From contig JBIOWE010000004.1 of the NCBI GenBank assembly GCA_044868145.1, positions 73,395 through 137,394 on the forward strand: a stretch of 64,000 nt of DNA. The letters run 5' to 3'. A program made the translations under genes and the position numbers. How positions within the stretch are numbered: position 1 is the first letter of the stretch; the number at the start of each line of letters is the position of its first letter. Below the pieces are notes generated by a model, which was not told the origin of the DNA, ran no database searches, and saw nothing but the letters and a program-made list of their open reading frames with translations. The DNA is from Patescibacteria group bacterium. GTDB taxonomy: Bacteria; Patescibacteriota; Patescibacteriia; UBA10025; JBIOWE01. This document shows positions 5,236-61,818 of this stretch, in pieces.

Positions 5236-5322
5236 CGGAGGCGAGAGGATTCGAACCTCTGATACCCTTGCAGGCATACGTCCTTTCCAGGGACGCCCAT
5301 TCAACCGCTCTGGCACGCCTCC
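5236..5322 (-). tRNA. tRNA-Ser (anticodon GGA), long variable arm
   Basis: Acceptor GGAGGCG/CGCCUCC. Anticodon stem CGUCC/GGACG with loop CUGGAAA. Long variable arm. T arm AGAGG-UUCGAAU-CCUCU. Discriminator G. Confidence 0.8.
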
Positions 5323-8316: not shown

Positions 8317-8451
8317 TCAAAAAAATCACCCCTCGACGAGCTCGGGGTTTCTGAGAACAATGCTAGCAGAATTTCAAGTCAGTTGGTTTGCTGACCCTGA
8401 AGGAGGCAAAAGCCGAGCTCATGGCCGAGGGCAGGGTCGAAGACGGGGTTA

Positions 8452-22886: not shown

Positions 22887-22970
22887 GCCGCGATGGTGGA
22901 ACTGGCAGACACGTAGCGTTCAGGGCGCTATGACCGCAAGGTCGTGGGAGTTCGACTCTCCCTCGCGGCA
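22887..22970 (+). tRNA. tRNA-Leu (anticodon CAG)
   Basis: Acceptor GCCGCGA/UCGCGGC. 3-bp D stem. Anticodon stem UAGCG/CGCUA with loop UUCAGGG. Long variable arm. T arm GGGAG-UUCGACU-CUCCC. Discriminator A. Confidence 0.8.
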
Positions 22971-24967: not shown

Positions 24968-25968
24968 TGTGGTACAATAAAGCTATGGAAAAGAGGATAT
25001 TTTCAGGAGTCAGACCGTCCGGCCAGCTCCACATCGGCAACTACTTTGGGGCGCTGAAGAATTGGATCGACCTGCAGGACAGCAATCATTGCGTTTTCGG
25101 AATCGTTGATTACCACGCCATCACAACGCCGTTTAATCCAAAGCAAATTCGCGACGATATTTTTCAAGTTGCCCTTGATTATCTTGCCGCCGGCGTTGAC
25201 GCGGAAAAAAGTATTCTCATGATCCAGTCACACGTGCCCGAACACACGGAACTGGCGTGGATATTGGGAACGCTGACGCCGATCTCCTGGCTCGAACGCG
25301 TGCCCACGTACAAAGAAAAGATCGAGCAGCATCCCGACTACATAAATCTTGGCCTTTTATCCTACCCCGTGCTCATGGCGGCGGATATTCTCATATACAA
25401 ATCGAATGCGGTTCCGGTCGGTGCAGACCAGTTGCCTCACATTGAGCTTGCGCGAGAAATCGCGCGGTCGTTCAACATCAAGTTCGGGCAAACGTTTCCA
25501 GAACCGAAAGGGGTTGTCGGGCAAGGCGCGAGGATTATGAGCCTGCTTGCGCCGGAGAAAAAAATGTCCAAGTCGCTTGGGCCAAATCACTACATCGCAC
25601 TCGCGGATTCACCCCAAGTCATAAAAAAGAAGATCACTTCGGCCGTCACGGACGCGGGCAACGATGCCAAAGAACCAAAGCGGCCGGGCGTTGCAAACCT
25701 GTTTGCGCTTTTACATTTATTTTCAAATCGAAAAATGCAAGATGAATTCGAAAAACAATACCGGGAGAGAAAAATCAAATATGCCGAACTCAAATCATTG
25801 CTTGCCAATGATATTGCAGAATACTTTTTCGATTTTCGAACGAAAAGGACTGTTTTAGAAAAACAACCAAAAAAAGTGTGGTCTGCTCTTGAAGACGGCA
25901 GCAAAAAAGCACGTGTCATAGCGCGGGAGACACTTGCTGACGTCAAAAAGAAGATAGGCCTCTCGTAA
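24967..25968 (+). CDS. trpS: Tryptophan--tRNA ligase
   Basis: Class I HIGH motif (SGQLHIGNYFGA) and KMSKS motif. About 330 aa. The true start may be the ATG at 24985. Confidence 0.9.
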   Translation: MWYNKAMEKRIFSGVRPSGQLHIGNYFGALKNWIDLQDSNHCVFGIVDYHAITTPFNPKQIRDDIFQVALDYLAAGVDAEKSILMIQSHVPEHTELAWILGTLTPISWLERVPTYKEKIEQHPDYINLGLLSYPVLMAADILIYKSNAVPVGADQLPHIELAREIARSFNIKFGQTFPEPKGVVGQGARIMSLLAPEKKMSKSLGPNHYIALADSPQVIKKKITSAVTDAGNDAKEPKRPGVANLFALLHLFSNRKMQDEFEKQYRERKIKYAELKSLLANDIAEYFFDFRTKRTVLEKQPKKVWSALEDGSKKARVIARETLADVKKKIGLS

Positions 25969-58712: not shown

Positions 58713-59294
58713 TTATGTACGCCCAAGAAATTTAAGCGCTTCTTTCACTTTTTTGCTGACATCAGAGATATCGTCGGGAATTGCGTGCAGAGCTTTTTGC
58801 GCCTCCACTTTTGTATACCCAAGTCGAAGAAGCGCGTCAAGCGCTTTCTGGTCGATCGTTCGCTCTTTCGTAAATACTGCACCACCCTTTTTCGATACGA
58901 CTAATTTATCCTTCAGCTCCACAATAATACGCTCCGCAGTTTTCATACCAATCCCCGGCGCTTTCGTCAGATAGACAGCATCTTCCCGACTAATCGCCTG
59001 TTGCACGTTCTCTAGTGAACCTATGGAAAGCACGGCCATGGCCACGCGCGGGCCAACGTCGGATACTGTTAATAAAAGCTCGAACAAATCAAGCTCTTCA
59101 CGACTTGGCATGCCATACAACTCCATCTTGCCTTCGGGTGTATACAGATACGTATAGAGCGTCAGCTCTTTGCCCACAATTATACTCTCGAGCACCTTTG
59201 CGGGCACAAACACTTTATAGCCAACGCCTTGCACATTGAGCACAGCGTACTTCTCGGCTTTGGATTGAACTGTACCACTCAGGGAAGCAATCAT
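58713..59294 (-). CDS. ruvA: Holliday junction branch-migration protein RuvA
   Basis: Start placed at MIASLSGTV. OB domain, two helix-hairpin-helix motifs (GIGMKTAERI) and a C-terminal domain III. Confidence 0.85.
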   Translation of the reverse strand: MIASLSGTVQSKAEKYAVLNVQGVGYKVFVPAKVLESIIVGKELTLYTYLYTPEGKMELYGMPSREELDLFELLLTVSDVGPRVAMAVLSIGSLENVQQAISREDAVYLTKAPGIGMKTAERIIVELKDKLVVSKKGGAVFTKERTIDQKALDALLRLGYTKVEAQKALHAIPDDISDVSKKVKEALKFLGRT

Positions 59295-59427
59295 ATGGCT
59301 ATTATACCAGAGAATCAAAGAGGGTGTATGGAGATGCTGAAACGAGTTCAGCATGACTGAAAAAAACCTTACCGATAGTCACCCTGAACTTGTTTCAGGG
59401 TCTCCATGGAACCGCTTGCCCCATTGC

Positions 59428-59540
59428 TGTCATTTCGAGGACGCTGAACTTGTCGAAGCGGACGAGAAATCTCCTGGCCAAAGCCTCTTGGCTTGGAGAT
59501 TTCTCACCCCCTCGGATGCACTCTGGGGTTCGAAATGACA
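59428..59540. other. 113-nt nested inverted-repeat element: outer 11-bp stem, inner 11-bp stem, apical 5-bp hairpin
   Basis: Outer pair tgtcatttcga (59428..59438) with tcgaaatgaca (59530..59540). Inner pair gagaaatctcc (59464..59474) with ggagatttctc (59495..59505). Apical gccaa/ttggc. Confidence 0.5.
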
Positions 59541-59637
59541 ACTGTGGGGCAGGCGCCGTGACCTCCCCTTCGGACGAGTTTTTTATTAGACAAGGATAAT
59601 TAAAAGTGATACTTTTAAGTCACAAAAGGAGGAAAAA

Positions 59638-59784
59638 TTGAATCAGATCATTCATGGTTTTGAAGAAGCTTTGAAAGACTTTGTGGGCGCTTTTACCCCA
59701 CTCACGATTGCCAGCACCTTGATCCTTGCCCTTGCATTTACTTTTATCATATGGATTCTCGTCAAGAAAGGGATCATAAAATAA
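59638..59784 (+). CDS. Unannotated small membrane protein (48 aa, TTG start)
   Basis: Ribosome-binding site AAAGGAGG 5 nt before the TTG. A single hydrophobic helix LTIASTLILALAFTFIIWILV. Followed directly by a terminator. Flanked by 24-nt direct repeats. Confidence 0.35.
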   Translation: MNQIIHGFEEALKDFVGAFTPLTIASTLILALAFTFIIWILVKKGIIK

Positions 59785-59808
59785 AACTCGTCTTCGGACG
59801 AGTTTTTT
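59784..59808 (+). terminator. Rho-independent terminator: stem actcgtc/gacgagt, loop ttcg, then T6
   Basis: Perfect 7-bp stem followed by TTTTTT, only 12 nt before the uvrB ATG. Confidence 0.65.
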
Positions 59809-59820
59809 GTTAGACTACAA

Positions 59821-61818
59821 ATGCTTATGGAACGATTCAAGTTGGTTTCAAAATTCAAACCGAAGGGCGACCAACCTGATGCCATCAAAAAACTCGTCGC
59901 CGGATTGAAGAAGGGCTATCGTGATCAAACGTTGCTCGGTGTCACCGGCTCGGGCAAGACGTTCACTATGGCCAACGTTATCGCCCAAGTCCAACGACCG
60001 ACGTTGGTGATTTCCCATAACAAAACGCTGGCAGCGCAACTGGCCAGCGAGTTTCAGGATTTTTTCCCGAGCAACGCGGTCAACTATTTCGTGTCGTACT
60101 ACGATTACTACCAGCCCGAGGCGTACGTTCCACGCACGGATACATACATAGAAAAAGAAACGGATATTAACGAGGAAATTGACCGCCTACGCCATGCTTC
60201 GACGCAGGCGCTACTCTCGCGTCGCGACACGCTCATTGTCGCGTCCGTTTCGTGCATTTATGGTTTGGGTTCGCCGGACGAATATAAAAAGGTGTCCATG
60301 AAGCTCACCACAAGACAAAGGATCACGCGCGAGGTGTTTCTCAAAAAACTCGTGGACATGCAATACAAACGTAATCAGTTTGACTTGTGGCGCGGCAGTT
60401 TCCGCGTTGTCGGCGAAGTAATCGAAGTGTTTCCGGCGTTCTCGGAAAATAATATCTATCGATTTCAGTTTGACGGCGATACGATTGAAAAAATCTCAGA
60501 AGTGGATTCGCTCACCGGCAAAGTTATCAATAATCTGACAACGGTTGACGTATACCCAGCAACACACTACATCGCCGAGCCATCGGACTTGGATGCGATT
60601 CTCGAGCAAATCCGCGCGGATTTGAAAGAGCGCGTAGCATTGTTCGAAAAGCAAGGTAAACCCTTAGAAGCGGAGCGAATCAAACAACGCACGAACTTTG
60701 ACCTTGAAATGATCAAAGAAACCGGTTATTGCAGCGGCATTGAAAACTATTCACGCTATTTCGATGGCCGGCAGCCGGGAACACCGCCGTACACGCTCAT
60801 GGACTTCTTTCCAAAAGATTACCTCTTGATTATTGATGAGTCGCACATGACGCTGCCGCAAATAAAAGGAATGTACCAGGGCGATCGATCAAGAAAAACC
60901 ACGCTCGTGGATTACGGATTTCGCCTGCCTGCCGCGCTTGATAATCGCCCGTTGAAATTCGAAGAGTTTGAACAGCGCGTGCGGCAAGTCGTGTACGCGT
61001 CAGCCACGCCGGACGAAGTTGAACGATACAAATCACAGCAAATCGTCGAGCAGCTCATTCGGCCGACCGGACTCTTGGACCCGACCATTGAAATAAAACT
61101 AACCAAGAATCAAATTGATGATTTGATTGGCGAAGTCCAGAAACGCATCAAGAAAAAACAGCGCGTGCTCGTGACCACGCTCACGAAGCGGATGGCCGAG
61201 GATTTATCCGACTACTTGGGCGACCTCGGGATTAAAGTGCACTATTTGCATTCCGAGCAGGACACGTTTGAACGGTTGGAAATCCTGCGTGACCTACGCA
61301 TGGGCGTGTTCGACGTCGTCGTAGGCATTAACCTGTTACGTGAGGGGCTCGACTTACCCGAAGTGTCACTTATTGCCATCTTAGATGCCGACAAGGAAGG
61401 CTACTTACGCTCAGAGACGGCGCTCATCCAAACCATGGGCCGAGCCGCGCGGCATCTCGACGGCCATATTATCATGTACGCGGACAGGGTCACCGGCTCA
61501 ATGCGCCGCGCCATCAATGAAACAAATCGGCGGCGAAAAACCCAGGAGCGCTACAATCAGGAGCACAACATTACACCGAAATCCATCGTGAAACAAATCA
61601 AGGAAAGCAGGCTCTCTGGCGCAAAAATAAAAGAGGAAAAGCCCGCGCAGCTTTCGTTGAAAGATATTCCGAAAGAAGAAGTGCCGCACGTACTCGAGGA
61701 CCTTGAAAACCAAATGGATCTCGCGGCTAAAAACCTTGAGTTTGAGCGCGCGGCTGAACTGAGAGACCAGGTTGCATCGCTGAAAGGCCTAACGATAAAA
61801 AAGAGACGGGGTGGTTAA
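59821..61818 (+). CDS. uvrB: Excinuclease ABC subunit B UvrB
   Basis: Walker [11 protein letters not shown], helicase motifs and the beta-hairpin region, plus the C-terminal UvrC-interaction domain [12 protein letters not shown]. Confidence 0.95.

Follow-up and report, generated by a model that had tools for sequence, protein, structure and literature searches.

A candidate small membrane-protein gene framed by a duplicated terminator/promoter module upstream of uvrB in a Patescibacteria genome

Introduction

LdrD, BsrG, and PepA1 are small bacterial peptides, each with one transmembrane helix and a basic C-terminal tail. Homology-facilitated illegitimate recombination is an established process in naturally transformable bacteria. 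Both serve as background for the locus analyzed here, which lies in the spacer between the divergent genes ruvA and uvrB of a Patescibacteria group bacterium, a lineage in which, to our knowledge, orphan small proteins are abundant and almost unstudied. The stretch under analysis, called the window below, consists of 64,000 nucleotides (nt) of contig JBIOWE010000004.1 (positions 73,395 to 137,394 of the forward strand), and all coordinates are positions in the window unless a relative is named. Just upstream of uvrB, a pair of direct repeats brackets a 48-codon open reading frame (ORF), the micro-ORF. The original prediction had described this arrangement as a small gene cassette inserted or duplicated by recombination at a terminator, or as a partial terminator duplication that made room for a micro-protein.

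Our conclusion, to which we assign a probability of about one half, is that the spacer carries a small gene framed by a duplicated terminator/promoter module, and that this arrangement arose via recombination from a related allele. Most of the anatomy of the locus is directly observed; its origin we infer. The module, the promoters, the micro-ORF, and the relatives are taken up below, and each competing explanation is weighed beside the evidence that bears on it.

The Repeat Pair and the Terminator at Copy 2

The two copies of the direct repeat are 24 nt long, CTTCGGACGAGTTTTTTATTAGAC at 59568–59591 and CTTCGGACGAGTTTTTTGTTAGAC at 59792–59815, and differ only by A at 59585 versus G at 59809; both coordinates and the single mismatch are exactly as first predicted. 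Extension by 5 nt to the left gives a 29-nt repeat with 26 of 29 positions identical. Copy 1, CTCCCCTTCGGACGAGTTTTTTATTAGAC, then spans bp 59563–59591, and copy 2, CTCGTCTTCGGACGAGTTTTTTGTTAGAC, spans bp 59787–59815, both on the plus strand. With up to 3 mismatches allowed, the 24-nt repeat has these two matches and no others on both strands of the 64-kb window, where 100 dinucleotide-preserving shuffles gave an expectation of 0.00. The organism has another, independent assembly record, a Logan contig (L012) that ends at window position 60126, and there the repeat region is 100% identical.

Copy 2 is a composite. It comprises a perfect intrinsic terminator core, a T-tract, and most of an extended −10 box belonging to uvrB. 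The hairpin, AAAACTCGTC-TTCG-GACGAGTTTT at 59783–59806, has a perfect 10-bp stem (−13.2 kcal/mol, z = −4.06) and is followed by further T. In RNA form, AAAACTCGTC-UUCG-GACGAGUUUU plus UU (59783–59808, plus strand), it combines a stable stem-loop, a UUCG loop, and six U residues, as an intrinsic terminator should, and it overlaps the stop codon of the micro-ORF, whose terminator it is. An A-tract and a T-tract lie on opposite sides of the hairpin, so that by sequence the terminator is bidirectional. Only about five loci in the 64 kb have a perfect stem followed by a T-run (9298/9320, 22536, 26533, 56591, and 59784/59806, the last being the present one), and canonical intrinsic terminators are therefore rare in this genome. 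The original prediction had taken copy 2 as the 3′ part of a perfect hairpin, which holds, and the repeat as half of a terminator, which does not: the repeat is the whole hairpin core together with the T-tract and most of the uvrB promoter box.

Copy 1 is a decayed duplicate of the same terminator/promoter module. It was said to lack the 5′ stem half; in fact, it has CTCCCC where copy 2 has CTCGTC, so that 4 of 6 bases are kept, and the A-tract is gone. The two substitutions break two central pairs of the hairpin. Considered as an intrinsic terminator, copy 1 fails, since its minimum free energy (MFE) of −3.9 kcal/mol comes from unrelated pairing, and 196 of 200 shuffles fold equally well or better. 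The promoter part has changed as well. Copy 1 reads TATTAGACA, that is, TG has become TA and the base after the repeat is A rather than T, and with these changes the extended −10 box is lost. The last bases of copy 1 together with A59592 form the −35-like hexamer TAGACA.

Predicted Promoters and Corrected Starts

Three TGnTAnnnT boxes, and no more, occur between 59280 and 59900. The window as a whole has approximately one per 1.2 kb per strand. One box belongs to each gene, so that ruvA, uvrB, and the micro-ORF would each have their own predicted promoter.

The uvrB box, TGTTAGACT (59808–59816, plus strand), sits inside copy 2 right after the T-tract and 10 nt before ATG 59827. The original prediction overlooked this box and the true uvrB start. 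The listed start is ATG 59821; alignment with relatives, whose N-termini read MQKFKLISKFKPTGDQP and MKFKLKSKFKPTGDQP, moves it to ATG 59827, and the corrected gene extends from 59827 to 61818 on the plus strand. There is no Shine–Dalgarno (SD) sequence. An extended −10 box followed by an SD-free start is thus present at uvrB as a motif match, and the uvrB mRNA is predicted to be near-leaderless. The same layout is found in six of the relatives (L015, L016, L018, L019, L176, and L177), in which a TGnTATAGT box lies 6–13 nt before the uvrB ATG and no SD is present.

The start of ruvA also needs correction. The listed ruvA ORF of 213 amino acids (aa) is 20 codons too long, and its extra codons (MLNSFQHL..., minus strand, 59292–59354) run through one of the palindromic units described below. 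The RuvA proteins of relatives are mostly 193–198 aa in length, and the corrected start, ATG 59294 on the minus strand, gives 193 aa beginning MIASLSGTV. The ruvA feature, box included, spans 58713–59309. Its box, TGGTATAAT (59309–59301), is 6 nt before ATG 59294, from which it follows that ruvA mRNA would be leaderless.

For the micro-ORF, the predicted promoter (59587–59615, plus strand) consists of TAGACA at 59587–59592, a 5/6 match to TTGACA, a 17-nt spacer, and the extended −10 TGATACTTT at 59607–59615, giving the layout TAGACA-17 nt-TGaTACTTT. The −10 element lies approximately 10 nt upstream of the SD of the micro-ORF and predicts a transcription start near 59622.

TGnTAnnnT boxes were also seen 5–10 nt before the ATG of several long ORFs elsewhere in the window, for example at 24970 and 35409 on the plus strand and at 8319, 35443, 44896, and 52313 on the minus strand. 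Leaderless or very short-leader mRNAs seem, from such motifs, to be common in this genome beside SD-led genes. Literature searches on leaderless mRNAs in Patescibacteria, and on the sequences of the hairpin, returned nothing usable.

The Micro-ORF

The micro-ORF (59638–59784, plus strand) runs from a TTG at 59638 to a TAA at 59782–59784 and encodes the 48-aa peptide MNQIIHGFEEALKDFVGAFTPLTIASTLILALAFTFIIWILVKKGIIK, of which MNQIIHGFEEALK is a part. Its SD, AAAGGAGG at 59625–59632, is separated from the TTG by 5 nt. The ribosome-binding site, TTG start, and 48-codon frame between the repeats agree with the original prediction. AAGGAGG is found 13 times in the window, and in 8 of the 13 cases, the micro-ORF's included, a start codon 3–6 nt downstream opens an ORF of at least 48 aa; the SD and its 5-nt spacing are like those of real genes of the window.

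Coding potential was scored with a codon model trained on the long ORFs of the window and compared with 48-codon windows from genes and with off-frame windows. The log-likelihood ratio of the micro-ORF, 15.8 bits, is at the level of gene windows (15.0 ± 6.7) and is reached by none of the off-frame windows (−6.9 ± 6.6). This score ranks first among the 61 intergenic ORFs of 40–70 aa. The synonymous-codon score is 0.048 per codon, compared with 0.106 ± 0.083 for genes and −0.058 ± 0.070 for intergenic ORFs, which puts the micro-ORF in the top 5% of intergenic ORFs.

The N-terminal tail of the peptide is acidic, its C-terminal tail, KKGIIK, is basic, and one transmembrane helix lies between them. 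The helix covers residues 24–42, with a Kyte–Doolittle 19-residue maximum of 2.62, and bears out the single helix that had been claimed. By the positive-inside rule, the C-terminus is probably in the cytoplasm.

An explanation to be set against a functional gene is that the locus is a rearrangement scar and nothing else, that is, a partial duplication of the uvrB terminator/promoter in which the 48-codon ORF is there by chance, or is very young, and yields no functional protein. Several findings weigh on that side, and so against our own reading. No homologue of the micro-ORF was found by a word-indexed search of 5.8 billion proteins, by exact look-up, or by phmmer against 1.84 billion representatives. 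The peptide has no match in Pfam, NCBIfam, or PHROGs, and tblastn, which the original prediction had proposed for related genomes, gave no match in the window or in loci L001–L019. The gene caller skipped the micro-ORF on the Logan contig, the synonymous-codon score reaches just the 22nd percentile of gene windows, and the GC content of the region, about 40%, matches that of other intergenic regions. With no homologue in these protein sets, the micro-ORF could be young or spurious. A scar without a gene would, however, have to bring together by coincidence a perfect SD at the usual spacing, a well-placed extended −10 box, the top coding score of 61, a transmembrane helix, and a strong terminator. 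We regard it as an unlikely alternative. A random frame is unlikely to combine the SD, the extended −10 box, the coding score, the helix with its basic tail, and a dedicated terminator; the micro-ORF is probably a real, lineage-restricted small membrane-protein gene, as far as can be predicted.

The form of the peptide raises the question of a type I toxin. On this view, the micro-ORF would encode a toxin-like peptide under the control of an antisense RNA, and the repeats would represent the duplication typical of such loci. The size and hydrophobicity fit: the gene is a standalone intergenic unit, and its product, at 48 aa, is below 60 aa and has one transmembrane helix and a basic C-terminal tail, as do LdrD, BsrG, and PepA1. 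Of the regulatory part, no sign was seen. No minus-strand TGnTAnnnT box is present in 59560–59900, an antisense transcript arriving from uvrB would be halted by the bidirectional terminator short of the micro-ORF, and the SD is unsequestered in the predicted fold. In addition, the window holds no second copy, and none of the toxin models in PHROGs, Pfam, or NCBIfam is matched. A type I toxin is accordingly considered very improbable.

The overlap of the stop codon with the 5′ arm of the terminator suggests yet another arrangement, a leader-peptide attenuator, in which the terminator would be kept from forming, either because the micro-ORF is being translated or because copy 1 pairs with the terminator 5′ arm, and read-through into uvrB would follow. 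The duplex of copy 1 with the 5′ arm, at −12.3 kcal/mol, is nearly as stable as that of the terminator's own arms, at −12.8 kcal/mol. The alternative helix must, however, close a 188-nt loop, and the MFE structure of the whole unit retains the terminator (z = −1.6 only). Copy 1 also lies upstream of the predicted transcription start of the micro-ORF and so outside the mRNA. As in the relatives, uvrB has its own promoter box past the hairpin, and no SD awaits a read-through transcript. An attenuator calls for an exclusive antiterminator and a gene that depends on read-through; given the MFE structure, the start position, and the uvrB promoter box, neither is found, and this explanation appears extremely improbable.

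The Spacer and the Module in Relatives

No close relative of the source genome was found in the collections searched, in which the only identical contig comes from the same genome. The closest named UvrB proteins are annotated to Patescibacteria (candidate phyla radiation, CPR) and are at most 73–74% identical, and the best RuvA among GTDB species representatives is 45% identical. With the nearest UvrB at 73–74%, the spacer before and after the rearrangement cannot be reconstructed for the source genome itself. The distant relatives are nevertheless informative.

The divergent ruvA–uvrB arrangement is kept in L013, L015, L016, L176, L177, and L178, while the content of the spacer differs in every relative and consists of orphan genes. 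Depending on the lineage, the spacer holds 5–7 small ORFs, a 532-aa secreted-looking protein, a cupin, or 1–2 small minus-strand ORFs. Scans of the small spacer ORFs of L013, L016, and L177 gave no significant Pfam or PHROG match. UvrB identity is 92–94% among L013, L178, L016, and L177, and the window is about 73% identical to all four.

One of these relatives has the module. In L013/L014, a 92-aa two-helix membrane ORF is followed by AACTCGTC-GAAA-GACGAGTTTTTTGTTAAACTAAATATATCTTATG, the final ATG of which opens a uvrB start. The counterpart in the window is AACTCGTC-TTCG-GACGAGTTTTTTGTTAGACTACAAATGCTTATG. Placed side by side, L013 reads AACTCGTC-GAAA-GACGAGTTTTTTGTTAAACTA..CTTATG and the window reads AACTCGTC-TTCG-GACGAGTTTTTTGTTAGACTA..CTTATG; that is, the stem, T-tract, and promoter box are identical, and the tetraloop is swapped. 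Both UUCG and GAAA belong to the classic stable RNA tetraloops. In L013, the hairpin has only 8 bp. Copy 2, the intact module, matches L013 positions 2734–2765 on both flanks. Because no further instance of the module is known, copy 1 would be the one derived. When 241 million JGI metagenome records were scanned for GACGAGTTTTTTRTTARAC, 36 matches came up; 35 do not have the hairpin around them and resemble coding sequence or chance (DEFFVK-type), and the remaining one is the L013 contig. The module hairpin has 0 matches in IMG/VR. It follows that the module is very rare and that it is linked to uvrB both times.

The L013 module belongs to a discrete unit. Positions 2385–2774 of L013 form a clean 390-nt indel relative to its sister L178, right before a uvrB (pseudo-)start, and L016 and L177 also lack it. 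The unit contains a TTGACA-17-TAATAT promoter, an SD, the orphan 92-aa two-helix membrane ORF, the module terminator, and GTTAAACTAAATATATCT. At the empty site, L178 has a canonical promoter, TTGACC-17-TATATT, 9 nt before the ATG, and for this reason an insertion in L013 is likelier than a deletion in L178.

The same clade has further additions at this position. Extra copies of the first 13 uvrB codons number one in L178, two in L013/L014, and none in L016 and L177. These uvrB pseudo-starts lie at 2776–3040 in L013 and at about 1850–1990 in L178, and after each come a terminator-like hairpin (AACCCT..AGGGTTTTAT) and a new promoter; one pseudo-start of L013 has been called as a 38-aa gene. The ruvA–uvrB spacer is a hotspot for small insertions, and small additions, in which some of the resident sequence is duplicated, have repeatedly struck the region of the uvrB start.

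Beyond the 3′ module, the window and L013 cassettes share nothing significant. In a comparison of their 5′ regions, 149 of 2000 shuffles scored as high or higher, and for the ORF bodies, 1441 of 2000 did so.

An Operator or a Cassette?

Conservation of the stem sequence invites a reading of the module as DNA rather than RNA. According to this proposal, the palindrome AACTCGTC-N4-GACGAGTT, lying over the uvrB promoter, would be an operator bound by a putative, possibly DNA-damage-responsive, repressor. Copy 1 and a fourth half-site within uvrB would be auxiliary sites, and the micro-ORF and uvrB would be co-regulated, as with the SOS-induced TisB and DinQ. It is the sequence of the stem, not only its pairing, that is identical in L013 at 73% UvrB identity, and it is the 4-nt spacer that differs. 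The 10-mer GACGAGTTTT occurs four times in the window, always within the 326 nt from 59573 to 59898, including one occurrence in uvrB codons IKKLV (59889–59898), and 6 of the 31 GACGAG/CTCGTC sites of the window fall within 438 nt (59461–59898). Only 3 of these 6 clustered sites are accounted for by the repeat and hairpin. The 3′ half of copy 1 has remained 23/24 identical though the 5′ hairpin arm has decayed. A derivation of the terminator from uvrB codons 22–27 was also considered. The terminator 3′ arm plus T-tract (59797–59809) forms a 13-nt perfect complement with the IKKLV codons (59886–59898), and uvrB codons 22–27 match the terminator over 16 nt at 14 of 16 positions, where we estimate about 0.1 such matches by chance and where part of the match is conserved IKKL coding. 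Against the operator, the UUCG and GAAA loops suggest that an RNA hairpin has been under selection, the palindrome is missing upstream of uvrB in six other relatives whose UvrB is about as distant from that of the window, and the internal site is in conserved coding sequence, with L013 reading AAAACTCACG there. Both the operator itself and the co-regulation built on it are distinctly improbable.

The two module instances also invite a reading as mobile units. A site-specific micro-cassette would consist of a small ORF, the hairpin, and GTTRRAC, either integron-like or left as the scar of an att site at the uvrB promoter, with the repeats as its recombination sites. Two different small-ORF cassettes do end in the same module, both right before a uvrB start. 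GTTAGAC and GTTAAAC fit the integron core GTTRRRY, and the mismatch in the 24-nt repeat is immediately 5′ of TTAGAC, where an integron-type crossover would fall. The inverse core, however, is absent, the partner position reading TCATAAA rather than GTCTAAC, and the hairpin is perfect and 24–36 nt long, whereas attC sites are 57–141 nt and have bulges. The genes neighboring the locus are ruvA, FemAB, NTP-transferase, SAM synthetase, and uvrB, and there is no integrase among the genes within about 5 kb on each side. The L013 cassette has no matching left-end site. Finally, a module seen once in JGI metagenomes outside the source genome, and never in IMG/VR, is too rare for a mobile family. The micro-cassette is, in our judgment, about as improbable as the operator.

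An integron attC site was tried as a candidate in its own right and rejected: an R′-like core (GTTRRRY) is present as GTTAGAC, but its R″ partner (RYYYAAC), the expected size with extrahelical bases, and a nearby IntI are all missing. A miniature inverted-repeat transposable element (MITE) or insertion sequence was likewise rejected, as the only inverted arms (59573–59588 and 59777–59792) stem from the palindromy of the hairpin, and the interior is single-copy in the window.

A broader version dispenses with the integron integrase. Here the hairpin plus TTTTTTGTTARACTA would be the 3′ end of a family of tiny cassettes, each encoding one small membrane ORF behind its own promoter and SD and closed by a terminator that would serve as an outward promoter as well; the existence of such a family is quite unlikely. 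That its members would be delivered to the uvrB start region in Patescibacteria, successive arrivals leaving arrays of modules, is a conjecture that we also hold to be quite unlikely. The same evidence is equally compatible with the palindrome as the operator of a DNA-damage regulator over peptide and uvrB.

A Palindromic Cluster to the Left of Copy 1

Immediately to the left of the repeat pair is a cluster of hairpins that resembles repetitive extragenic palindromic (REP) elements. The cluster, at 59330–59555, has four units of the form GTCA..hairpin..TCTCC arranged as two inverted pairs, with an MFE of −107.5 kcal/mol (z = −7.5). The units lie at 59330–59357 (minus), 59378–59405 (plus), 59429–59474 (plus), and 59495–59539 (minus). 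The whole palindrome from 59413 to 59555 stops 7 nt before copy 1, and the cluster may have replaced the sequence that formerly preceded copy 1.

The unit GTCA-NN-CTGAACTTGTTTCAG-N′N′-TC has 43 instances in IMG/VR contigs of very different composition, with compensatory changes at NN/N′N′. In those contigs, the GTCA units often occur as inverted pairs about 60 nt apart and also adjoin related units, GTCATTTCGA..GAGAAATCT and GTCATTGCGAGG... In one contig (L121), a GTCA unit sits in the loop of a terminator. From these sequences, the GTCA hairpins look like a widespread and apparently uncurated family. Rfam searches of the window at gathering score, and of the region at E values up to 10, returned only tRNAs and sub-threshold terminator look-alikes (STnc370 and the rimP leader).

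Elsewhere in the window, ARAGORN reports a tRNA-Ser(gga) at 5236–5322 (87 nt) and a tRNA-Leu(cag) at 22887–22970 (84 nt), both of them long and both absent from the Rfam tRNA output at gathering score.

A Model for the Origin of the Locus

The organization that we propose is as follows. The ruvA–uvrB spacer would hold a self-contained small gene consisting of a promoter, an SD with a TTG start, a 48-aa single-pass membrane peptide, and a terminator. The copy 2 hairpin would end transcription of the micro-ORF and shield uvrB from read-through, and the T-tract plus TGTTAGACT would act as an extended −10 promoter from which a near-leaderless uvrB mRNA is made. Copy 1 would be a partial duplicate that has lost both the terminator and promoter functions and that marks the 5′ boundary of the small gene, for which it may provide the −35 element.

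How might such a frame arise? The original prediction offered a cassette at a terminator or a duplication. The former has one parallel, the 390-nt indel of L013 before a uvrB start with the same module. Neither flank, nor any other part of the window, is significantly similar to the 195-nt interior, and this rules out a simple tandem duplication. With such an interior, we propose instead that an allelic segment was most likely acquired. The incoming segment would have contained the small gene, the module, and the 5′ end of uvrB. Its right crossover would be anchored by homology in the uvrB start region, and its left join would be illegitimate, falling just after the resident module. Such homology-facilitated illegitimate recombination would leave the resident module in place as copy 1. 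The same process would yield the 390-nt indel of L013 and the uvrB pseudo-starts of the L013/L178 clade. An empty-site allele, on this model, would read copy 1 joined directly to TACAAATGCTTATG.

Some further points count against the proposal. The promoters are motif predictions, and in the −10 hexamers TACTTT and TAGACT only 3–4 of 6 positions agree with the consensus. The scenario for the origin draws on analogy and on a module seen in two places. At its left end, the L013 cassette shows no significant similarity to the module, so that duplication of the module is no general signature of such additions. And conservation of the stem in sequence and not just in structure, at the UvrB distance given above, would also fit a DNA-binding site.

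With this analysis, a Patescibacteria genome gains a credible gene for a small membrane protein that had gone unannotated, and two neighboring starts are corrected, ruvA to 59294 and uvrB to 59827. The locus also suggests that a single 29-nt module can both close one transcription unit and supply the promoter for the following one, and that duplication of such a module can frame a new gene. The L013/L178 comparison indicates that the uvrB start region recurrently gains small insertions in this group. Current concepts are unchanged unless the cassette or operator proposal is true. Overall, the locus looks like an ordinary rearrangement scar around an overlooked small gene; readings as an attenuator, an integron, a MITE, or a toxin–antitoxin system are not supported.

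Comparison with Known Systems

Integron cassettes resemble the locus in that a hairpin with GTTRRRY at its end comes after a single short ORF, the 3′ element is common to different ORFs, and the repeat mismatch falls at the crossover point. They differ in that the element here is a perfect short terminator with no inverse core and no extrahelical bases, the units have their own promoters, there is no integrase nearby, and only two instances are known.

The palindromic cluster on the left shares with REP/BIME (REPIN) elements the short hairpin units, whose 5′ tetranucleotide (GTCA) and 3′ end (TC) do not vary, the inverted pairs, and the intergenic position. Classic REPs are species-specific, in contrast to the GTCA unit, which is found in very diverse viral-metagenome contigs and forms only one cluster in the window.

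In size, helix, and charged tail, the predicted peptide is like bacterial small membrane proteins of up to 50 aa, such as the SOS-linked TisB and DinQ and the toxic TimP (PMC7667032), and like them it is encoded by a standalone intergenic unit below standard annotation thresholds. There is no sequence similarity to these proteins and no sign of an antisense or small RNA partner, and the adjacency to uvrB is positional only.

The products of homology-facilitated illegitimate recombination match the proposed history in three respects: DNA is added beside a conserved anchor gene, the resident sequence stays as an imperfect direct repeat, and no transposon ends are found at the locus. Here the process is supported by analogy, namely, by the L013-versus-L178 indel and the pseudo-starts in a distant clade.

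A further likeness in layout is to intrinsic terminators that overlap the promoter of the next gene, where an extended −10 (TGn) promoter drives a leaderless mRNA. Copy 2 has the same order of elements, that is, hairpin, T-tract, TGnTAnnnT box, and, 10 nt further on, an SD-free ATG. What sets this locus apart from such overlaps elsewhere is that the module is present twice and that its sequence is kept in one distant lineage.

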